64,000 nt of DNA from a phage: the NCBI GenBank assembly GCA_012338575.1, contig GCA_012338575.1_3616.1, one strand, 5' to 3'. This document shows, one piece after another, positions 1 to 57,456 of this stretch. A program made the translations under genes and the position numbers. How positions within the stretch are numbered: the first letter of the stretch is position 1; each line of letters starts with the position of its first letter. The notes beneath the pieces were generated by a model, which did not search any database, was not told the origin of the DNA, and saw nothing but the letters and a program-made list of their open reading frames with translations.

Positions 1-13
1 AAAAAAAAAATTA

Positions 14-41
14 TTGACACGCTGCAAAATTAAAGTAAACT
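14..41 (+). promoter_or_regulatory. sigma70-like promoter (TTGACA, 16 bp, TAAACT)
   Basis: TTGACA 14-19, TAAACT 36-41; leader hairpin GGCGGGAA-tgtt-TCCCGCC precedes SD of CDS 90-485. Confidence 0.4.
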
Positions 42-89
42 AGACACAAAAGGCGGGAATGTTTCCCGCCAACACAAAGGAAAAAGATC

Positions 90-485
90 ATGAATAAGAA
101 CGTACGCCGCATCATGAACGAACTGGCAAACGATGAAAAAATTATTGATATGCATTTGGTCAACATTTGCCGCCGTTGTGTAACATATAACAACCGCGCC
201 GCAAAAGCGCGTGAGATGAACGCAAAAGGCACCTTAAAGCCCTTTCAGGTGGTTGTAAAATCTATAGCTAATGCAGCAGGCCAGGCGCATGACCACAACA
301 ACGAGAGCACTAATATTGATCCGTCTTACGTAATGAAACGGATCCGGACTTGCAAGAATAAAGAGCAGGTGTATAACGTCATAGATTGGCTGGACTCCAT
401 GGGCGATGTGGTTTATAATAGGTTTTCTGCAGCTATCGAGATCCAGCTTGACAGATTGGACGGGAAAGTACTGAAAACTTACTGA
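90..485 (+). CDS. hypothetical early protein (131 aa)
   Basis: ORF with SD AAGGAAAAAG 5-6 nt upstream of ATG; own promoter. Confidence 0.6.
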   Translation: MNKNVRRIMNELANDEKIIDMHLVNICRRCVTYNNRAAKAREMNAKGTLKPFQVVVKSIANAAGQAHDHNNESTNIDPSYVMKRIRTCKNKEQVYNVIDWLDSMGDVVYNRFSAAIEIQLDRLDGKVLKTY

Positions 486-486
486 G

Positions 487-530
487 TTTATTTTTAGATG
501 GCCTTGACTCCAGGGCCATCAATAAAGTAA
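487..530. repeat. conserved 44-bp intergenic element copy 1 (palindrome GATGGCCTTG-ACTC-CAGGGCCATC carrying TTGACT)
   Basis: Near-identical copies at 1106-1150 and 4861-4905, variant at 1444-1485; 10-bp stem hairpin; no U-tract after hairpin on either strand. Confidence 0.7.
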
Positions 531-564
531 CCTAACCACAGTTGAGCGGAAAGGGGGCTTAAAG

Positions 565-684
565 ATGAGTACTACACGCCAGCACACAAAGGTAACTATT
601 ATCGTTTGCATCATTGGTTACATCCTGGCGCAAATGTTGATGGGTAGCGCCAACGGTATCGCAAAATTTTTCTTAAACTTTTAA
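565..684 (+). CDS. small hydrophobic protein (39 aa, predicted single TM helix)
   Basis: ATG 565 preceded by AAAGGGGG; not in ORF track (below 60 aa); translation MSTTRQHTKVTIIVCIIGYILAQMLMGSANGIAKFFLNF. Confidence 0.4.
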   Translation: MSTTRQHTKVTIIVCIIGYILAQMLMGSANGIAKFFLNF

Positions 685-685
685 T

Positions 686-715
686 TGACAAGCTAACTTA
701 GATCAGTATACTAAC
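686..715 (+). promoter_or_regulatory. sigma70-like promoter (TTGACA ... TATACT)
   Basis: TTGACA 686-691 and TATACT about 17 bp downstream; followed by leader hairpin GGGAAAACTTCCC. Confidence 0.45.
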
Positions 716-762
716 CACATAAACGGGAAAACTTCCCAGAACACACAAAAGGAGAAAACACC

Positions 763-1104
763 ATGACTACTATGACCGCCGCAGATAAAGCTATGCAGAT
801 CGCCGCGCTGAAAAAACAGATCGCAGACCTTGAGAACAAGATCGATAACTTTGAAATCGACGAGGACAAGTACGACGAAAACTATGATGAATGGTTAGAC
901 GAGATCTACGGCGAAATTATGATCGGAAACATTTCTTTTCTTCCGTCGCGTATCCTCAAGGAGCTAGATCCTATCGCTTACCGCTGCGGATTTAGCGACT
1001 ACATCGACAGCCTGGATATTGAGGACGATGAAGAATACCAGGAATTACAGACAGAGTTGGAAGAAGCAAAAGAAGAGCTTGCGGAGCTGGAAGAAAACGA
1101 GTAA
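763..1104 (+). CDS. hypothetical acidic early protein (113 aa)
   Basis: ORF with SD AAAAGGAG; strongly acidic C-terminal half. Confidence 0.6.
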   Translation: MTTMTAADKAMQIAALKKQIADLENKIDNFEIDEDKYDENYDEWLDEIYGEIMIGNISFLPSRILKELDPIAYRCGFSDYIDSLDIEDDEEYQELQTELEEAKEELAELEENE

Positions 1105-1105
1105 G

Positions 1106-1150
1106 ATTATTTTTAGATGGCCTTGACACCAGGGCCATCAATAAAGTAAA
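1106..1150. repeat. conserved 44-bp intergenic element copy 2
   Basis: GATTATTTTTAGATGGCCTTGACACCAGGGCCATCAATAAAGTAAA. Confidence 0.7.
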
Positions 1151-1193
1151 CTTTATACTGTTAACACTGAACTAATGCATAGGAGTTAAAACC

Positions 1194-1439
1194 ATGGCCG
1201 CACTAATTACCAAATATTACGCCCCTACCAACACCAAAAGCGCCCGTATCATGGTAAAAGGCTTCGGACGTAAAAAGGTTTACACCTGGGATTATTCCCT
1301 AGACATGGAAGACAACTACACCAACGCGATGACCGATTTTATTAATGAACTAAATAAGCAGATCTTAACCAATTATAAGGTTACCGACATCGCCTATGTT
1401 GGGGAAGGTGGGATCTGTTTTGTCGGTATTGTCAAATAA
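1194..1439 (+). CDS. hypothetical early protein (81 aa)
   Basis: ORF with SD AGGAG upstream. Confidence 0.55.
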   Translation: MAALITKYYAPTNTKSARIMVKGFGRKKVYTWDYSLDMEDNYTNAMTDFINELNKQILTNYKVTDIAYVGEGGICFVGIVK

Positions 1440-1443
1440 GCTG

Positions 1444-1485
1444 TTTTTTCGGTGGCCCTGGTGGCAGGGCCATCTATAAAGATAG
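1444..1485. repeat. variant copy of intergenic palindromic element (GGCCCTG-gtgg-CAGGGCC)
   Basis: Same architecture (T-run, GC palindrome, ATAAAG) as the 44-bp element but diverged. Confidence 0.5.
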
Positions 1486-1515
1486 TTTATTAACACCATG
1501 AAAGGAGAAAGTAAC

Positions 1516-1869
1516 ATGATCAGCGGGGCTAGTTTTATTATTGGCGCTATTGCTACGGCTTTAATTGTAAACAAGATCCAATCTAAAAACGAGAAAGAGA
1601 GCAACGCGCTCACAGAATACCCATTTTGGGTATTCAACGACAATGAAGACTATATTATCAAGTACAAGGATGAGAAAGGAGACCAGGTAACACCGCGACC
1701 GATCCCGGCTTACAAGATGCAAGAAACACTATACCGCCTAAAGGCTGGAGGCGCAAAAATCGTAGACTTTTGGGGATATGATTGCAAGGATCAGGAGGTT
1801 ATAAAACGGCGTATCCGGGCGATTCAGGCAAATATTGAAGTTAGCAAGGGGGGAATATATGAAGATTAA
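1516..1869 (+). CDS. hypothetical protein with N-terminal hydrophobic segment (117 aa)
   Basis: ATG 1516 follows SD AAAGGAG at correct spacing; track ORF starts 18 nt earlier inside the SD. Confidence 0.55.
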   Translation: MISGASFIIGAIATALIVNKIQSKNEKESNALTEYPFWVFNDNEDYIIKYKDEKGDQVTPRPIPAYKMQETLYRLKAGGAKIVDFWGYDCKDQEVIKRRIRAIQANIEVSKGGIYED

Positions 1870-2056
1870 TTTTGAGAAGATTGTAAAGCGATCTCATGAT
1901 TCCGAGGAGTTGCCGGAACGCCGCCAGCGCAACAATAAACTGAATAAGCCAAAAAGATTTGGGAAGATCTGGCGGAATCATTATGATCGTAAATTGCCGG
2001 GCCTACTTTTGGAACGTGAACGACAAGCGGAACGATACCGCCACAAAGGCAAATAG
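1859..2056 (+). CDS. small basic protein (65 aa)
   Basis: ATG 1859 after GGGGGG; overlaps stop of upstream gene; Arg/Lys-rich. Confidence 0.45.
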   Translation: MKINFEKIVKRSHDSEELPERRQRNNKLNKPKRFGKIWRNHYDRKLPGLLLERERQAERYRHKGK

Positions 2057-2063
2057 CAACCAA

Positions 2064-2090
2064 CGCCCCGCCATTGTGCGGGGTTTTTTA
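2064..2090 (+). terminator. rho-independent terminator
   Basis: CCCCGC-cattgt-GCGGGG followed by TTTTTT. Confidence 0.7.
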
Positions 2091-2238
2091 TTTCTATCCT
2101 ACGAATAGCGCCCCTGGTTGGCCCCACAAACGCCACAAAAGCCCCTACCTATGCAATCCCCTTTATTAACCTGAAAACATCACCCAGGGCCGTTTTATGG
2201 TGTTAAAAAATATCATTGACAGTGATTTTATTTAAAGC

Positions 2239-2267
2239 TTGACACCTTGGAATAGTCCGGATATACT
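2239..2267 (+). promoter_or_regulatory. sigma70-like promoter (TTGACA, 17 bp, TATACT)
   Basis: TTGACA 2239-2244, TATACT 2262-2267. Confidence 0.5.
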
Positions 2268-2302
2268 AACCACATCAAAGCAAGAAGGAAGGAGTAAACG
2301 CC

Positions 2303-2563
2303 ATGCGTAAATTAAAAAATTTTGATAAAGTTGATGTTGTCCTGAATAATTTTTACTACTGCAATAACAAGGCCATTTGGTGGCGTGATAGTTCCACCGA
2401 TAAAGTCAAGGCGCGCTTTCTCCAGGGGCACTGGCAAGGCCGTCCAGTGATTAAAATCATGGGGCAATTGGTAGCGTTTAAAAATTGCCGCCGTGTTGAT
2501 GACGTTGAAGAGATTTTAAGCATTTTGCGCCACAATAATTTAAAAAATAGTGTTGACAAGTAA
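2303..2563 (+). CDS. hypothetical early protein (86 aa)
   Basis: ORF with SD GGAAGGAG. Confidence 0.55.
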   Translation: MRKLKNFDKVDVVLNNFYYCNNKAIWWRDSSTDKVKARFLQGHWQGRPVIKIMGQLVAFKNCRRVDDVEEILSILRHNNLKNSVDK

Positions 2564-2580
2564 ATCTCGATAAGTATACT
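2553..2580 (+). promoter_or_regulatory. sigma70-like promoter (TTGACA, 16 bp, TATACT)
   Basis: TTGACA 2553-2558 overlapping stop of upstream gene; leader hairpin GGCGGGAAAACTTCCCGCC follows. Confidence 0.5.
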
Positions 2581-2637
2581 TAAACACACAGGCGGGAAAA
2601 CTTCCCGCCACTAACAAAGAAAATAGGAGAAAATATC

Positions 2638-3261
2638 ATGACCACCGTTAACATTACCACAGGTTACAATTTATCTTTCGACGTGCTGACCGATGAACAA
2701 AAAGAAAAAGCTATTGAAATGGTCCGCGAAAGAGAAGAACACAGCGGGGATAACTTTTTTGCAGAAAGTGTAATTGAAGACTATAAAGAACATATCTTTC
2801 CAGAGTATGGCCTTGAAGATACCAAGGTACATTGGTCCGGATTTTGGTGCCAGGGTGACGGCGCGTCAATCAGTGCGGGAAACGTGGATTTAGAAAAATT
2901 CTTGCGTAAAGTCAAGTCTCTGACTAAATTCCGCTCAATTCGTCACTTGTTCGGCACAATGCACGATGGCGAACTATCCGCAAGTGTTGAGCGTGATCCA
3001 TATAGCCGCTATAGTCACGAAAACACTGTAAGCGGGTACATCGATACTACATGGCTAGATCTGACCGCCAAACAAGAAAACAAAGTGGAAGACCTGGAAG
3101 AACTGATCACCGAGACGGTACGGGAGCTATCCCGCAAGGTTTACGTAGACCTGGAGGAGGCCTATCTAGAACAGTTCACTACCGAAAACCTGATCGGCCT
3201 TATTGAGGCCAATGATTGGCGGTTTGATGTGGATGAATATGGAGAGATGAGTTTTTCATAA
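2638..3261 (+). CDS. hypothetical early protein (207 aa)
   Basis: ORF with SD ATAGGAGAAAA; largest early ORF, acidic. Confidence 0.6.
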   Translation: MTTVNITTGYNLSFDVLTDEQKEKAIEMVREREEHSGDNFFAESVIEDYKEHIFPEYGLEDTKVHWSGFWCQGDGASISAGNVDLEKFLRKVKSLTKFRSIRHLFGTMHDGELSASVERDPYSRYSHENTVSGYIDTTWLDLTAKQENKVEDLEELITETVRELSRKVYVDLEEAYLEQFTTENLIGLIEANDWRFDVDEYGEMSFS

Positions 3262-3269
3262 ATAAAGTG

Positions 3270-3297
3270 TTGCAATAATCTAAAAACCTGCTATATT
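3270..3297 (+). promoter_or_regulatory. sigma70-like promoter (TTGCAA ... TATATT)
   Basis: TTGCAA 3270-3275, TATATT about 16 bp downstream; leader hairpin GGGGGCAA-gacg-TTTGCCCC. Confidence 0.4.
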
Positions 3298-3351
3298 AAA
3301 ACTCAAGGGGGGCAAGACGTTTGCCCCACACAAAACAAAGAGGAAAACATT

Positions 3352-3732
3352 ATGAAAAACACTACTAAAGCTATTGACACCGTTATGTTTAACCTGGTTA
3401 CCTTTCGCGAGGATATGAAAGATCTTCCACGTGAAACAGTGTGCGATCACATTGAAAACTATCGCAAACTAATCAAAGAGTTGCCTTTAAAACGTGACCA
3501 GTATGCGGCTAACGCTATGCTCAACGCCATGATCAAAAAGATGATTCAGTGTGATTTAACCCTGGCCTATGATTATGCAGGTGGTCGTTTTGCAGTATAC
3601 AATCAGCCCGTGCCTGGTATGGGCACCACTGAAGAATTGCACGCGCTCAATCTAAAACAAGACGTGTGGGATAGTATGCCCCGCGTGGTGGTGTGGGCAG
3701 AAAGCGGAAAGATTTACGGCGATAATTTTTAA
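3352..3732 (+). CDS. hypothetical early protein (126 aa)
   Basis: ORF with SD AAGAGGAAAA. Confidence 0.55.
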   Translation: MKNTTKAIDTVMFNLVTFREDMKDLPRETVCDHIENYRKLIKELPLKRDQYAANAMLNAMIKKMIQCDLTLAYDYAGGRFAVYNQPVPGMGTTEELHALNLKQDVWDSMPRVVVWAESGKIYGDNF

Positions 3733-3742
3733 TCAGGTAACA

Positions 3743-3768
3743 GGCGGCATATTTGCCGCCTTATTGTT
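3743..3768 (+). terminator. rho-independent terminator
   Basis: GGCGGC-atattt-GCCGCC then TTATTGTT. Confidence 0.55.
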
Positions 3769-3796
3769 AAACAGAACTGCAAAAGAGGTACATAGA

Positions 3797-4168
3797 ATGG
3801 AATTTATTATTTTGGCCGTATTAGTTGCCTTGTTTAACGCCTGGATCGCTGGCAAGATGGGTAGATCCGCCTTTTTATGGTTTATTATATCTATTTTCCT
3901 GGGGGTGGTTGCAACTATTGTACTTGTTATCCTTGCAATTGTTGACAAAGGCGATAATAGAAAGGGTAAAGTATTTTCCGACCTGTATGACGCGCAAACA
4001 TTTGTCAACGCCTATTATAGTGATCTTCCAGTCTCCCTACGCTGCAGCCTTGCACAACAGGTTTTCGATGAAGCTAAAACCAGAGATCACGCCCATGAGA
4101 TTTGTTTAACTGAGGCGGATCGCCTATTTGAGAGGAATAGAAAATATGTGGGCCAGCCGTTTAAATAA
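3797..4168 (+). CDS. membrane protein (two predicted TM helices at N-terminus)
   Basis: ATG 3797 after AAAGAGG; MEFIILAVLVALFNAWIAG... hydrophobic. Confidence 0.5.
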   Translation: MEFIILAVLVALFNAWIAGKMGRSAFLWFIISIFLGVVATIVLVILAIVDKGDNRKGKVFSDLYDAQTFVNAYYSDLPVSLRCSLAQQVFDEAKTRDHAHEICLTEADRLFERNRKYVGQPFK

Positions 4169-4391
4169 TACCACGTTAATTAATCCCTTTGATGAAGATT
4201 TGAAGCCAGCCGCCTGGCGTGATGGATTCAATAACGAACGCTTTATTTTCAGGCCTGATCTTAAGGAATTTTGTAACAATGGATCGAACAACGACAGAGA
4301 TAATTTTTCTTGTGATGTGCGTGGTGATGGTACTCCTGGGGGCCATTGTAAACCACGTCACTACTACCAGGATGAAAGGGGGAGACGATGA
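4146..4391 (+). CDS. hypothetical protein (about 82 aa)
   Basis: ATG 4146 after GAGAGGAA; overlaps upstream stop. Confidence 0.4.
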   Translation: MWASRLNNTTLINPFDEDLKPAAWRDGFNNERFIFRPDLKEFCNNGSNNDRDNFSCDVRGDGTPGGHCKPRHYYQDERGRR

Positions 4392-4507
4392 CAACCAAGG
4401 ATAAGCCCCGCACCGATAAGGTGCGCCGGGTTATGGTATGGCTTGAGATCATCGCCCTTGAAATATTGTTAGGCGTAGGGATGTATTTTATCGCTGTAAG
4501 TAACTGA
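4388..4507 (+). CDS. small membrane protein (39 aa)
   Basis: ATG 4388 after GGGGGAGACG, ATGA-type overlap with upstream gene; not in ORF track. Confidence 0.4.
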   Translation: MTTKDKPRTDKVRRVMVWLEIIALEILLGVGMYFIAVSN

Positions 4508-4648
4508 TAACGGCCCCCGATCCCTGGGGTCCTAACTTTTTCAAAAAATTTTTCTTCCGGGGTGTTGCAATCCGGTCCGAAATATGGATAATAATAATCA
4601 ACGGGGAGCTAATCCCCACCAACACAAAAACCAGAAAGGAGAAACAAA

Positions 4649-4849
4649 ATGAGCAACAATATCCGCGTTATTAACTTCAAAAAAGAAGAAAAAATTGCCG
4701 TGCTGATTGACGGTCAAGAAATCTTCAAGGGCTATTATGAAGATCATCAAACTGCGATTAGTATCACTCGCGTGATCGGTTACCATAATTTCTACCCCCA
4801 AGGCGCTGAGGCAGCAGTAAAACGAATCAAAGAGATTGTAGGCCTGTAA
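4649..4849 (+). CDS. hypothetical early protein (66 aa)
   Basis: SD AGAAAGGAG; preceded by promoter-like TTGCAA..ATATGGATAATAA and leader hairpin GGGGAGCTAATCCCC. Confidence 0.55.
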   Translation: MSNNIRVINFKKEEKIAVLIDGQEIFKGYYEDHQTAISITRVIGYHNFYPQGAEAAVKRIKEIVGL

Positions 4850-4860
4850 AATTTATTTTT

Positions 4861-4905
4861 AGATGGCCTTGACTCCAGGGCCATCAATAAAGTAAATTTA
4901 AACCC
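4861..4905. repeat. conserved 44-bp intergenic element copy 4
   Basis: TTTATTTTTAGATGGCCTTGACTCCAGGGCCATCAATAAAGTAAA. Confidence 0.7.
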
Positions 4906-4942
4906 TGTTAAAATACCACGCAGTTAACAAGGAGTGATAGAC

Positions 4943-5242
4943 ATGTTTATCCAGGCTAATAATCTTTATTTCTTTGATGGTCAGATCGTAGATGGTGTGG
5001 AAGTGGAGATCACCGGGTGCCCTGGCGGTCAGGCTATGACTTTTCGGAATAATGCCTTTAATGATTCTCATATCGTTATGAGAATGGAAGTTACGAAGCT
5101 GGATGACAAGAAAACACTTATTGACTATTCTGTGAAAGATCATCCAGACTACCACATGATCTATGGTGATTTGTGCATTGTTGACCGTGACAAGGTGAGC
5201 GGCATTGTGATCGCTATTGTGAACGATGTTTTCTCAAACTAA
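4943..5242 (+). CDS. hypothetical early protein (99 aa)
   Basis: ATG 4943 after AAGGAG. Confidence 0.55.
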   Translation: MFIQANNLYFFDGQIVDGVEVEITGCPGGQAMTFRNNAFNDSHIVMRMEVTKLDDKKTLIDYSVKDHPDYHMIYGDLCIVDRDKVSGIVIAIVNDVFSN

Positions 5243-5259
5243 TTTCAACAGGTGATTTT

Positions 5260-5610
5260 ATGAAAGTTAAATTATATTACCTTAATGAGCTTAACCCCCT
5301 TGCCCAGGTCCGCGCCCTAGCTAATACCTTGATTTGTGAGAAATCTGTATATTGTGTTGAGCTTAACGCTATGCGTGAACGTCTCAAAGGTGGTTACTTT
5401 AATATCCATGCTGCAATCAACGGCCTGAATATGGAATTTATCCGTTTACGTAACAGCCGCCGGAATCTGGCAAGAATGGAACAAGATCCGGCCCACCTTC
5501 GTAAGCTGGTTATTGAAAATCATCTGATGTTTAATGCCGAGGGTGATTATTACCATTTTCACCGCAAACGCTGGTACCGTGGCGGCAATACAGGCAAGAA
5601 TGCAAAATAA
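5260..5610 (+). CDS. hypothetical early protein (116 aa)
   Basis: ORF with SD AGGTGA. Confidence 0.5.
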   Translation: MKVKLYYLNELNPLAQVRALANTLICEKSVYCVELNAMRERLKGGYFNIHAAINGLNMEFIRLRNSRRNLARMEQDPAHLRKLVIENHLMFNAEGDYYHFHRKRWYRGGNTGKNAK

Positions 5611-6160: not shown

Positions 6161-6394
6161 ATGATGGAACAAATTAAACGCACCGAGGCTATTAATGGCA
6201 ATGTGATCTATTTTGTTAGCAAAAACGAAAAAGGCGTACCATATGCGGCGGTAATAGTACAACCTGACGGCGATTATTGGTTTACTGTGTACGGCGCTTA
6301 TTCTTTTGGGCGTCCAGTGCATGATAAAATTTTGAAAGTAGCGAACCCTACCGGGAAGAATATCACAGCAGAAAAATTTTTTGAAAATAGTTGA
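6161..6394 (+). CDS. hypothetical early protein (77 aa)
   Basis: SD AAAGAGAGG. Confidence 0.55.
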   Translation: MMEQIKRTEAINGNVIYFVSKNEKGVPYAAVIVQPDGDYWFTVYGAYSFGRPVHDKILKVANPTGKNITAEKFFENS

Positions 6395-6469
6395 CATGAC
6401 CATATAAGACTGTAATATATAAATCAGAGGGGGCAACGAACCCCACCAACTACAAAGAGGATAAAAATC

Positions 6470-8309: not shown

Positions 8310-8527
8310 ATAAAAAGTGTTTTGGTACTGATTTTGGGGTTGACTTGTTCGGCCCCTTTTGCTATTCTTATTAAACGGGCGGCACTTGGGAACAGGGGGA
8401 GACAATCACCAGGCCTGCCTGTCATATAAGAACTATAAAAACCGTTGACATCTGCCAGGGGGTGGGGTAACATTTATCTTGAAGGGGCAAAGGTGCCCAC
8501 ACAACAACCAGAAGAGAGGAAAACACT

Positions 8528-8800
8528 ATGTCAAGCTGGATTAATCAAGAAGTCGAATCACGTTTTAATGCTATTTGGGATCTCATCGAAAAAGAAGACG
8601 GCACATCAAGCCCCTACCTCAACAATTTGGAATTCCATTTTGTGGAAGCGATGAACGCAGAACATGATCACGAAGGTGGTGCGGACGAGTTCGCTAAAGG
8701 GTATGGCTTCAACAATGCCAACGAAATGATCGAGGCGGTTGTACTCCAGGCTGAGGAAGATTATCAATTAAAAACGCTTGAATTCTGCCGCCGTAAGTAA
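8528..8800 (+). CDS. hypothetical acidic protein (90 aa)
   Basis: SD AGAGAGGAAAA; two upstream TTGAC(T/A) promoters. Confidence 0.55.
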   Translation: MSSWINQEVESRFNAIWDLIEKEDGTSSPYLNNLEFHFVEAMNAEHDHEGGADEFAKGYGFNNANEMIEAVVLQAEEDYQLKTLEFCRRK

Positions 8801-8860
8801 TAAGATAATGACACGGGCCGGGAGGCCCACTAATCAGAACCACACAAAGAGGTAAACATC

Positions 8861-54668: not shown

Positions 54669-54743
54669 GCCCTGTTAGCTTAGTGGATAAAGCAGCGGCC
54701 TTCTAAGCCGTTGACACTGGTTCGAGTCCAGTACGGGGTGCCA
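54669..54743 (+). tRNA. tRNA-Arg (anticodon TCT)
   Basis: Manually folded cloverleaf: acceptor GCCCTGT/ACGGGGT, D-arm GCTT-AGTGGATA-AAGC, anticodon loop CTTCTAA, T-arm ACTGG-TTCGAGT-CCAGT, CCA encoded. Confidence 0.8.
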
Positions 54744-54873
54744 AGTTCTTTTTAATGTAGCTTACTTTAGCAGAGTAAATCTTCGGCAAGTGGCGGTAAC
54801 CACTTTACCGATACCTCATAGTTAGTGGTGAGAACACTAGCTATTTTAAAAAGAATTTAAATATTAGTATTTA

Positions 54874-54961
54874 GGTGAGTTAATTCCGTAGGGGTAGCGG
54901 GGCAGACTGTAAATCTGTTATCATTGCGATTCGGGTGGTTCGACTCCATCACTCACCACCA
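54874..54961 (+). tRNA. tRNA-Tyr (anticodon GTA), long variable arm
   Basis: Acceptor GGTGAGT/ACTCACC, anticodon loop CTGTAAA, T-loop GGTTCGACTCC, CCA encoded; 85 nt plus CCA. Confidence 0.8.
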
Positions 54962-55075
54962 AATTTATATTTTTAAATGCATAAATCATACAGGTAATGG
55001 CATTGATATTTATCGTCGTTTATACTAGTCACTAACTGCTCGAAAATCAGTGTCATTATCAGTATTGTTTATAAA

Positions 55076-55166
55076 AGAGGGTAGGGAGCAATGGTGCTCA
55101 AGCGGTCTTGAAAACCGTCCCGTTGAGGATGACTCGATGATGGTTCGATTCCATTATCCTCTGCCA
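55076..55166 (+). tRNA. tRNA-Ser (anticodon TGA), long variable arm
   Basis: Acceptor AGAGGGT/ATCCTCT, anticodon loop CTTGAAA, T-arm GATGG-TTCGATT-CCATT, CCA encoded. Confidence 0.75.
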
Positions 55167-55264
55167 TATTGTTGACCTTGTAATTAAGCGAAAGCCGGAA
55201 GCAGAACCGGATTATCAAATGTTACAGTCGTCATCGCCGACTAGCAACATGGTCAACATACTGA

Positions 55265-55361
55265 GCTAGGTAAGCCCTTTGGCAAGGGCGAGGATTTTTA
55301 ATCCTGAAAATAGACGAGGTAGTCGTTGAATACATAGGTGGTTCGATTCCATCACCTAGCA
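55265..55361 (+). other. aberrant tRNA-like element (canonical acceptor, D- and T-arms; anticodon region replaced/expanded)
   Basis: Acceptor GCTAGGT/ACCTAGC, D-arm GCCC-TTTGGCAA-GGGC, T-arm GGTGG-TTCGATT-CCATC, but middle is AGGATT-TTT-AATCCT hairpin plus about 30 extra nt; no encoded CCA. Confidence 0.4.
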
Positions 55362-55368
55362 CCTTTTT

Positions 55369-55444
55369 GCTGATGTAGCACAATTGGTAGTGCAATTGAT
55401 TTGTAATCAATAGGTTGCAGGTTCAAGTCCTGCCATCAGCACCA
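55369..55444 (+). tRNA. tRNA-Thr (anticodon TGT)
   Basis: Acceptor GCTGATG/CATCAGC, D-arm GCAC-AATTGGTA-GTGC, anticodon stem ATTGA/TCAAT loop TTTGTAA, T-arm GCAGG-TTCAAGT-CCTGC, CCA. Confidence 0.85.
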
Positions 55445-55445
55445 T

Positions 55446-55520
55446 GGCCCTGTAGCTGGAAGGTTCAAGCAAGCGACTCATAATCGCCAGACGGTGGTTC
55501 AATTCCACCCAGGGCCACCA
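55446..55520 (+). tRNA. tRNA-Met (anticodon CAT; elongator or Ile2-type)
   Basis: Acceptor GGCCCTG/CAGGGCC, anticodon loop CTCATAA, T-arm GGTGG-TTCAATT-CCACC, CCA; paired 1:72 argues against initiator. Confidence 0.75.
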
Positions 55521-55531
55521 AATAGTAAATA

Positions 55532-55608
55532 CTCCGCGTAGCTCAGCTTGGTAGAGCGCCTGATTTGGGATCAGGAGGTCGAGTGTTCGAATCACTCCGT
55601 GGAGACCA
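55532..55608 (+). tRNA. tRNA-Pro (anticodon TGG)
   Basis: Acceptor CTCCGCG/CGTGGAG, D-arm GCTC-AGCTTGGTA-GAGC, anticodon stem CCTGA/TCAGG loop TTTGGGA, T-arm GAGTG-TTCGAAT-CACTC, CCA. Confidence 0.85.
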
Positions 55609-56712: not shown

Positions 56713-57137
56713 TGTCTAAGATTTACGGACCGTGTTCTGAAAAGCAGAAGATGATCCTCGAAAACGATGCAGATATTTTGGTAATCGGCGGTGCCGCAGG
56801 GTCTGGCAAGTCGTTCCTTTTGCAGTTGATGCCGCTTAAAATTATTGATGACCCCCACAGCTCTGTGGTTATGTTCCGAAGAACAACTCCACAGTTGGAG
56901 GGTGAGGGTGGACTATGGCCTAAAGCAGTAGCTATTTATAGTGATCTGCCTGAAAACATTAAGCCAAAGTTCAGAGAGAAGGATCATAAGTTCATTTTTC
57001 CACGGTTTGATCCTAACACTGGTAAGTGGGATAGAAGCAAAAAGGGAGCTGTTGTAAAATACTGCCACATGGAGTATGTACAAGATAAGCTTAACCATCA
57101 AGGGCTTGAGTACACCATGGTTTGCTTCGATGAGGGT
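56712..57137 (+). CDS. terminase large subunit, exon 1 (ATPase Walker A/B)
   Basis: Walker A GGAAGSGKS, Walker B MVCFDEG; reading frame hits stop at 57138-57140 inside intron. Confidence 0.75.
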
Positions 57138-57456
57138 TAATTTGTAGCTCTCGTAAAACCTCCCTAATTGCGGGGAAATCTTTATTATTGACACCACCAA
57201 CCTGTTATGGTAACATGATAGAGGCTTCGAAGAGAGATCGAAGGTATGGTAACAGTGTGTTAATTTAGATAATCCGCAGCGAAGCATCCGAGGGGATGAA
57301 CGTTCAACGACTAGTCGAAAGACGTAGAATCAAGCGATTCGAAACGGGAGGGTAAGCGGTTGTTGTCGCTTATAAGATATAGTCTGGTCTGCATGGAGAC
57401 ATGCAGCTGCCTGAAAATGGCGGGGCAAGACTAGCGACCTTGCCCGAACATAAACG
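57138..57456 (+). mobile_element. group I intron (ORF-less, td-like) interrupting terminase large subunit gene
   Basis: 319 nt without ORF; begins TAATTTG after exon T, ends ...GAACATAAACG; contains AGTCTGGTCTGCATGGAGACATGCAGCTG, AACGACTA, CGAAACG strings recalled from T4 td intron; splicing 57137/57457 is in frame. Confidence 0.75.

Follow-up and report, generated by a model that had tools for sequence, protein, structure and literature searches.

A repeated intergenic hairpin element in the early region of an rV5-like coliphage resembles promoter-early stem-loop cassettes

Results

A repeated intergenic element follows the stop codons of small early genes

We analysed a stretch of phage DNA of 64,000 nucleotides (GenBank assembly GCA_012338575.1, contig GCA_012338575.1_3616.1), referred to here at its full length as the window. 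Its first 6 kb share 95-98% identity with rV5-like coliphages of the genus Vequintavirus, and judged by this identity the window phage is itself an rV5-like coliphage. The early region of the window contains an intergenic element present in three near-identical copies and one diverged variant. Its 24-base core, GATGGCCTTGACWCCAGGGCCATC, occurs exactly at 497-520, 1116-1139 and 4862-4885 on the plus strand, a fourth match with three mismatches lies at 1451-1474 (reported on the minus strand of the palindrome), and 100 dinucleotide-preserving shuffles yielded no match to the core. The corresponding 44-base unit occupies 487-530 (copy 1), 1106-1149 (copy 2) and 4852-4895 (copy 3), with the variant at approximately 1441-1484; the unit of copy 2 begins with A instead of T and carries the loop ACAC. 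A covariance model built from the copies recovered just these four sites in the 64-kb window, at 73-81 bits, and a search of the same window with this model for further diverged copies returned a next best hit of 15.7 bits (E of about 1). The repeat described in the original prediction from this DNA is thus borne out, as are its positions for copies 1 and 2 and for the variant, while its coordinates for copy 3 (4861-4905) lay about nine bases too far to the right. The claim that the element follows stop codons also holds, and for all four copies, each of which starts 1-11 bases past the stop codon of a small gene (TGA at 483-485, and TAA at 1102-1104, 1437-1439 and 4847-4849) and ends 42-58 bases ahead of the next start codon. 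The copies are organised as follows.

483-533, plus strand: copy 1; stop codon TGA 483-485; T-run and lower-stem 5' strand 487-496; upper stem and loop 497-520; putative -35 TTGACT 504-509; A-rich lower-stem 3' strand 521-530; putative -10 TAACCT 528-533; predicted fold -22.2 kcal/mol, z = -4.0
1102-1152, plus strand: copy 2; stop codon TAA 1102-1104; T-run 1106-1115; upper stem and loop 1116-1139 (loop ACAC); putative -35 TTGACA 1123-1128; AATAAAG 1140-1146; putative -10 TAAACT 1147-1152; predicted fold -23.5 kcal/mol, z = -5.8
1435-1491, plus strand: diverged copy; 14-bp lower stem formed by 1435-1448 with 1478-1491 and including the stop codon TAA 1437-1439; upper stem GGTGGCCCTG / CAGGGCCATC at 1451-1474 with loop GTGG; CTGGTG in place of TTGAC; -10-like GATAGT 1481-1486; predicted fold -32.2 kcal/mol, z = -6.0
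4847-4899, plus strand: copy 3; stop codon TAA 4847-4849; 11-bp lower stem formed by 4849-4859 with 4889-4899; upper stem and loop 4862-4885; putative -35 TTGACT 4869-4874; putative -10 TAAATT 4893-4898; predicted fold -23.6 kcal/mol, z = -5.6

A consensus drawn from the copies of about 15 genomes and contigs gives the order of the repeated block as stop codon, (T/A)TTATTTTTA, GATGGCCTTG, ACNY, CAGGGCCATC, AATAAAG and TAAAYT. Identity between the three loci of the main copies runs from the stop codon to the last T of TAAAYT, which is the final base of the putative -10. For copy 1 this hexamer reads TAACCT in the window and TAAACT in most other phages.

The element is confined to rV5-like phages and is inconsistently annotated

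The original prediction had proposed a search for the element in related genomes. In such a search by BLAST the element was matched in 121 phage records, every one of them rV5-like, at about three places each, and a typical Vequintavirus genome carries about three near-identical copies together with the diverged variant. BLAST searches with the element and exact-pattern scans of IMG/VR and metagenomes, made for distant homologues, found none beyond Vequintavirus, the IMG/VR matches to a 16-base pattern being mostly due to chance. We also used four flanking proteins in tblastn searches for distant relatives of the locus: gene A and a gene of 66 amino acids (aa) are confined to Vequintavirus, and genes B and C have homologues only below 60% identity, in unrelated phages that do not carry the element. 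A deep set for covariation analysis could not be built from these BLAST, IMG/VR, metagenome and tblastn searches. On the evidence of the sequences searched, the element is confined to the genus Vequintavirus. No Rfam family was found at the element, either with gathering thresholds over the whole window or with permissive E-values over positions 400-5000. A host-derived or REP-like origin was rejected, since the Escherichia coli genomes searched contained no sequence similar to the element.

Public annotation of the element is inconsistent. In the Murica genome the variant and copy 3 are each labelled as a 45-bp terminator, in the Gotham genome copies 2 and 3 are labelled as promoters (PhagePromoter), and the rV5 genome paper lists the element in neither its promoter table nor its terminator table. 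Our literature search found no published description of the element for rV5-like phages. Among the records close to the rV5-like region (about 95% identical) are 17 entries in the range MG065644-MG065690 that are labelled Campylobacter phage with C. jejuni as host, a host label that appears doubtful.

The conserved object is a two-tier RNA hairpin on the plus strand

As RNA, the plus strand of the element is predicted to fold into two helices separated by a 2x3 internal loop. The upper helix is a G+C-rich stem of 10 bp capped by a tetraloop; in the lower, an A/U stem, the T-run pairs with the A-rich stretch over 7 bp in copies 1 and 2, 11 bp in copy 3 and 14 bp in the variant. The original prediction described a 10-bp stem with an embedded TTGAC; ten pairs are indeed present around that motif, but they comprise nine Watson-Crick pairs and one T·G (G·U in RNA). 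The lower helix, like the indel polymorphism and the precedent of promoter-early stem-loop (PeSL) cassettes discussed below, had been missed altogether. Folds of the plus strand range from -22 to -32 kcal/mol with z scores of -4 to -6, and those of the minus strand are weaker (z of -1.6 to -2.7), a difference due to the G·U pairs, whose complement is a C·A mismatch.

We compared the two-helix structure with an alignment of 34 distinct 61-base copies (alignment A1). Paired bases filled 95.9% of the cells, against 36-56% when the 3' partner columns were slid by 1-3 positions. Four pairs of the lower stem had changed on both sides, giving 29 cells against 10.7 +/- 2.4 in shuffles, a value that none of 500 shuffles reached, although pair-count and shuffle controls of this kind overstate significance for related sequences. 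All three variable pairs of the upper stem exchanged only Watson-Crick and G·U pairing (A-U/G·U, C-G/U·G and U·G/C-G). One lower-stem pair of the variant differs between phages: the window, rV5 and Gotham have C-G, Murica and others have U-A, and a single metagenome contig has the intermediate C·A. The most divergent relative, Ga0129313_1000039 (84-87% identity), retains the two-tier fold in its copy 1 (-22.6 kcal/mol, z = -6.4) although that copy has a five-base loop and its 3' flank differs. In an alignment of five genomes, the 47-bp blocks contain one (copy 3), about two (copy 2) and about four (copy 1) variable columns, mostly in the loop or the -10, as compared to approximately 10-15% variable columns in the flanking coding and untranslated sequence.

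We conclude that the element is real and selected. Because the upper stem changes only in ways that preserve G·U pairing, the lower helix carries compensatory changes, and the hairpin outlasts both TTGAC and the promoter spacing, the conserved object is, by this pattern of substitution, an RNA hairpin of the plus strand and not a DNA-binding palindrome, contrary to the palindromic operator that had been suggested. Comparative evidence thus supports the RNA structure, and from it we infer a function at the RNA level.

The main copies probably contain an early promoter

The three main copies contain TTGACN, an 18-bp spacer and TAA(A/C)(C/T)T, which match the promoter consensus at 9-10 of 12 positions in copies 2 and 3 (10/12 in copy 2); copy 1 of the window, with TTGACT and TAACCT, scores 8/12, below the listing threshold of our promoter scan. 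An AT-rich run, TTTATTTTTA, precedes TTGACN. The TTGAC itself lies in the stem and loop, such that the upper stem covers the -35 together with 11 bp of the spacer. The published rV5 promoter P194 has the same sequence around its -10, AAGTAAACT, and in copy 1 of the window the AACCACA that follows the hexamer matches the sequence following the canonical TATACT promoters at 685 and 2239. TTGAC is intact in 37 of 38 sampled main copies. Within the unpaired loop, bases A11 and C12 are invariant, position 13 may be any of T, A, C or G, and position 14 is C or T, which is the pattern expected if the first five bases of the -35 matter. These features, together with the Gotham annotation and the end of the repeated block at the -10, make the promoter of the original prediction credible, and we consider it probable that the three main copies each provide a sigma-70 early promoter from which transcription restarts into the downstream gene. 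An IHF site was considered as well, CATCAATAAAGTA resembling WATCAANNNNTTR by eye, and was rejected: two consensus positions fail and the variant does not have it.

The element is not an intrinsic terminator

No U-tract accompanies the hairpin on either strand. The sequence 3' of the hairpin is AAUAAAGUAA, and the tails, AATAAAGTAA..., give a T-tail score of 0.37-0.38 (1.45 for the variant). With the d-score formula of d'Aubenton Carafa et al. 1990, the element scores about -44 and the variant -14, as compared to six nearby U-tract hairpins of which four score +1 to +33 and the other two -2.7 and -54. An intrinsic (Rho-independent) terminator was rejected on the tail score; so was a terminator on the opposite strand, because the reverse complement keeps the order T-run, hairpin, A-run. 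The view of the original prediction that this is not a standard terminator accordingly stands.

The architecture resembles that of T7 RNase III sites

We folded the T7 sites R0.3, R0.5, R1, R1.1 and R1.3 with the tool used for the element. Like these sites, the element is an imperfect intercistronic hairpin of about two helical turns interrupted by an internal loop (10 bp, 2x3 loop, 7-14 bp). Base-pair rules are available for the minimal R1.1 substrate (Pertzev and Nicholson 2006), and the element was compared to them in a register assigned by analogy. In this register U-A and U·G at positions 2-3 from the loop correspond to the canonical distal box, as in R1.1, an A-U pair falls at the equivalent of proximal-box position 2, and proximal-box position 4 falls in the internal loop, again as in R1.1. 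By analogy, the resemblance to T7 RNase III sites and the partial fit to these rules are suggestive.

Copies of the element recombine and flank a gene module that is present or absent as a unit

Comparison of related genomes revealed that the sequence between copies 1 and 2 is an optional gene module.

534-1103, plus strand: gene module between copies 1 and 2; 39-aa open reading frame (ORF) 565-684; canonical promoter and hairpin of the 5' untranslated region (UTR) 685-740; 113-aa ORF 763-1104

The module and one repeat, 619 bp in total, are absent from ime, magaca, ECP26 and one IMG/VR contig, in which a single element separates the 131-aa gene from the 81-aa gene downstream. In BLAST alignments window positions 3-533 and 1104 onwards are joined within the element of these short genomes, and the single element is chimeric, its left flank being that of copy 1 and its right flank that of copy 2. 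The 619-bp unit is present or absent as a whole, and recombination between copies is evident from this genome comparison. In addition, loop variants are common to copies within a genome and differ between genomes: ACTT is the loop of copies 2 and 3 in rV5 and of copies 1 and 2 in a gut-metagenome phage, and ACAC is that of copies 2 and 3 in Ga0129313. Such sharing indicates gene conversion between copies, to judge from these variants, which partly accounts for why the identity of the three copies extends beyond structure to sequence. The argument of the original prediction, that conservation of this kind implies a specific function, is weakened accordingly, since recombination and gene conversion yield part of the identity between copies. 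We also asked whether break-points of identity between genomes cluster at the elements, and this analysis was uninformative in a region that is strongly mosaic as a whole in 150-bp bins.

Neighbouring genes and other features of the window

The 39-aa and 113-aa ORFs of the module belong to PHROG families of unknown function, as do all nine of the neighbouring proteins examined. A separate indel at about 5245-5599 affects a 116-aa gene (5260-5610; phrog_8549, unknown function) that is absent from rV5 and Gotham, with no copy of the element at its borders. A 65-aa gene at 1859-2056, whose Murica homologue is annotated as T7 gp1.1-like, precedes a canonical U-tract terminator (2065-2084), beyond which lies a non-coding stretch of about 150 bases (2101-2250) that differs by up to 30% between phages. 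Farther away, six tRNA genes are clustered on the plus strand at 54669-55605, and a group I catalytic intron lies at 57128-57406 (Rfam RF00028, 83.6 bits, full-length match).

Discussion

A composite block that may act on RNA, DNA and genome

We favour the view that the element is a PeSL-type composite block of about 50 bp working at the levels of RNA, DNA and genome, and we give this reading a probability of roughly 0.58. In a transcript reading through from the upstream gene, the block would fold into the two-tier hairpin right after the stop codon, where the hairpin would define or insulate the 3' end of the upstream message. The likeliest route would be a cut by host RNase III in or beside the internal loop, as at the early-mRNA sites of T7, leaving the 10-bp hairpin to shield the end from 3' exonucleases; indeed, a single-strand cut in such an internal loop is known to leave a stabilising 3' hairpin. 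By analogy with T7 such a cut is possible, and we would place it somewhat short of an even chance. Alternatively, the hairpin might act as a plain exonuclease barrier or as an attenuator, as has been claimed for PeSL stem-loops. The superimposed sigma-70 early promoter would then restart transcription for the small downstream gene, a capacity that the variant would have lost together with its -35. Lastly, as three near-identical direct repeats, the copies recombine with each other, with the result that copies are homogenised and the gene module between them is inserted or deleted. In its most complete form, this proposal describes a signal for RNase III (or a phage nuclease) fused with a promoter in a portable 50-bp unit that cuts, protects the 3' end and restarts transcription, and that also serves as a patch of homology for moving genes. 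Every small early gene would then have such a unit to itself; we advance this form tentatively, as a doubtful one.

Several observations weigh against the composite reading or its parts. The -10 hexamers are weak (TAAACT, TAACCT, TAAATT) and their spacer is 18 bp long, copy 1 of Ga0129313_1000039 has TTGATA with a spacer of 15 or 20 bp, and the variant has no -35. The promoter is therefore not kept everywhere that the hairpin is, since the variant has lost its -35 and the divergent copy 1 has altered spacing. In addition, the conservation of the -10 and of the T-run is not assignable to one function, because both are strands of the lower stem. On the side of processing, the pair at proximal position 3 is G-C where the R1.1 model substrate prefers A-U, so that the fit is partial in the register assigned by analogy. 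Copy 1 of Gotham (MT682716, 6001-6047) lacks five bases of the 3' arm (GGGCC), a loss that leaves neither the hairpin nor the promoter spacing intact; either copy 1 is therefore dispensable in that phage, or there is an assembly error at the hairpin. The genomes compared are close relatives (84-98% identical) and so provide few independent substitutions, and it is for such related sequences that the shuffle controls are too generous. Since the whole region is mosaic, recombination is also not limited to the element repeats. Finally, a literature search for transcript mapping or transcript ends in Vequintavirus, which would bear on promoter activity, RNA ends and cleavage, found none, the sole paper naming the genus having performed RNA-seq on a T5-like phage.

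Some of these points can be read in favour of a pure RNA element, a processing or stability signal whose promoter-like hexamers are a by-product, with the downstream genes read through from canonical promoters upstream. This would explain why the hairpin is kept without the promoter, in the variant without TTGAC and in the divergent copy 1 with its spacer of 15 or 20 bp; it would explain the conservation of the -10 hexamer, which is a strand of the lower stem, as well as its weakness and the 18-bp spacer, and the T7 sites share the same architecture. Such a reading does not account for loop bases A11 and C12, which are dispensable for pairing and yet never change in the main copies, in contrast to positions 13 and 14, nor for block identity that stops exactly at the -10, nor for AAGTAAACT being common to the published promoter P194. 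Moreover, promoters bearing hairpins are the norm both in this region and in the PeSLs of phage RB49. We consider the purely RNA-level reading unlikely. A terminator or attenuator, in which the hairpin stops or cuts read-through by host RNA polymerase as claimed for PeSL stem-loops, would suit the site directly after stop codons and the Murica labels. It would also find a parallel in the RB49 PeSL211/210 stem-loop, which has no U-tract and lowered a downstream lacZ reporter as much as rrnB T1. However, that drop is equally explicable by RNA cleavage, termination does not need the conserved lower helix, and the flank AAUAAAGUAA, the T-tail of 0.37 and the d-score of about -44 stand in opposition to the positive scores of U-tract terminators in the region, with a reverse complement of equal order offering no terminator on the other strand. 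This explanation appears improbable.

The remaining alternatives place the function in the DNA or dispense with it. If the spacer were a palindromic operator (GATGGCC-N10-GGCCATC), a dimeric phage or host protein could switch the early promoters through it. The inverted arms are perfect over 7 bp and overlap the -35 and the spacer, the copies are near-identical in sequence and not merely in structure, and, according to the Fletcher et al. preprint, terminator palindromes can double as transcription-factor sites. But every stem substitution keeps G·U pairing, which has no meaning in double-stranded DNA, and the substituted positions differ between main and variant copies; the flanks form a second helix with compensatory changes; the half-site centres lie 17 bp apart, which is neither one nor two helical turns; and the identity between copies is partly due to gene conversion. 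Nor was a candidate binding protein found, the neighbouring genes all being of unknown function, and we regard an operator as quite improbable. A selfish or neutral repeat, either a recombination scar or a small mobile repeat spread by gene conversion with no regulatory role, would fit the active exchange that is apparent from the shared loop variants and the chimeric copy, and also the damaged Gotham copy, which has no evident harm. Against this, the blocks of five genomes have only 1-4 variable columns per 47 bp, as compared to about 10-15% variable columns in the flanks, the old variant keeps both helices via compensatory changes, and the block sits at a constant place with respect to the stop codon and the next start codon. 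To this last explanation we attach very little credence.

Implications of a composite element

Phages of the rV5 type are widely isolated for control of E. coli O157 and for therapy and form a block of the BASEL collection, and their early regions contain dozens of small genes of unknown function that differ between isolates. Under the composite reading, these small early genes are organised in PeSL-like cassettes, one type of which is a demonstrable crossover point for the gain and loss of modules; crossover at the cassette provides a concrete mechanism for the variability of the early region. There is a practical side as well, as a 50-bp unit might be used to swap genes, and natural deletion variants are at hand for testing what the module does. 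A two-tier hairpin that lacks a U-tract also raises the question of whether the terminator function ascribed to PeSLs is really T7-type processing by RNase III. Should a processing signal indeed be fused with a promoter, the PeSL strategy would be general to large lytic phages instead of being limited to the T4 family, and PeSL terminators without U-tracts would have to be reinterpreted as RNA-processing sites.

Comparison with known systems

The early RNase III sites of T7 are, like the element, repeated hairpins of conserved sequence between early genes, with an upper stem of about 10 bp that contains G·U and ends in a small loop, an internal loop, an A/U lower stem and no U-tract, and promoters share their intergenic spaces. 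There is no sequence homology between the two, the pair beside the internal loop is G-C in the element and not A-U, and the T7 hairpins hold no promoter inside. Moreover, cleavage has been shown for the T7 sites, whereas the element is known here by its sequence and predicted fold.

In promoter-coupled terminators a T-tract lies in the spacer just upstream of the -10 and the transcript ends about 10 bp before the next start (Fletcher et al. 2026, 10.64898/2026.08.19.745784). The element shares with these its location between tandem genes and a -35 that lies inside the stem-loop DNA closing the upstream unit. It differs in its A-rich spacer and strongly negative terminator score, and with AATAAAG after the stem in place of a T-tract it was rejected as a member of this class. 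Elsewhere in the window, at 8336-8373, a hairpin GGGGTTGACTTGTTCGGCCCC containing TTGACT is followed by TTTTGC and TATTCT in the textbook geometry of a promoter-coupled terminator.

The closest comparison is with PeSL cassettes, which have been described in the T4-like phages RB49/phi1, PST/T4 and nt-1/KVP40 (Arbiol et al. 2010, PMC2839356; Comeau et al. 2014, PMC4122927). In RB49 and phi1 these consist of an AT-rich run, a sigma-70 promoter and a stem-loop that overlaps the -35 or lies in the spacer; they flank ORFans, and recombination between flanking copies leaves a single chimeric copy in the sister phage (PMC2839356). RB49 PeSLs that we read directly, for example AAAAAGTTG-TTGACA-GGGGATC...GATCCCC-TATACT-ACACACAT, have stem-loops without a U-tract.

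The window also contains a second and commoner type of cassette, found at 14-89, 685-762, 2553-2637, 3270-3351, 4565-4648, 6391-6469, 8445-8527 and 8778-8860. It consists of an AT-rich run, TTGACA, N16-17 and a TATACT-like hexamer; the 5' UTR then opens with a G-run/C-run hairpin and continues through an ACACAAA-type tract to the ribosome-binding site and ATG. This layout is very like RB49 PeSLs in arrangement and partly in sequence; on the minus strand its hairpins score as terminators.

The element departs from PeSLs in several respects. Its carrier is a Vequintavirus and not a T4-like phage, it has no BLAST-level sequence similarity to RB49 PeSLs, its spacer is 18 bp with a weak -10, and it is present as three near-identical copies with one old variant instead of dozens. 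Its hairpin is far larger and engulfs the promoter, the 10-bp upper stem being joined by a helix of 7-14 bp made from the AT-run and the spacer/-10. For RB49 PeSLs, promoter, attenuator and mini-circle activities have been measured, whereas the sigma-70-type -35 and -10 of the element (missing the -35 in the variant) are read here from nucleotide sequence. The likenesses are nevertheless extensive. Both are repeated intergenic blocks (3 + 1 copies for the element) that stretch from the stop codon of one gene towards the ribosome-binding site of the next, and both sit between small ORFans of unknown function in a variable early region. Both combine an AT-rich run, a sigma-70-type -35 and -10, and a stable stem-loop that overlaps the -35 or lies within the spacer, tolerates G·T pairs and has no U-tract after it. 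Similarly, the copies of both flank a module that may be present or absent, with two flanking copies in one phage corresponding to one chimeric copy in a close relative with a shorter genome, the pattern described for ORFan192. By every feature of PeSLs that can be examined in silico, then, the element of rV5-like phages resembles a PeSL-type cassette.

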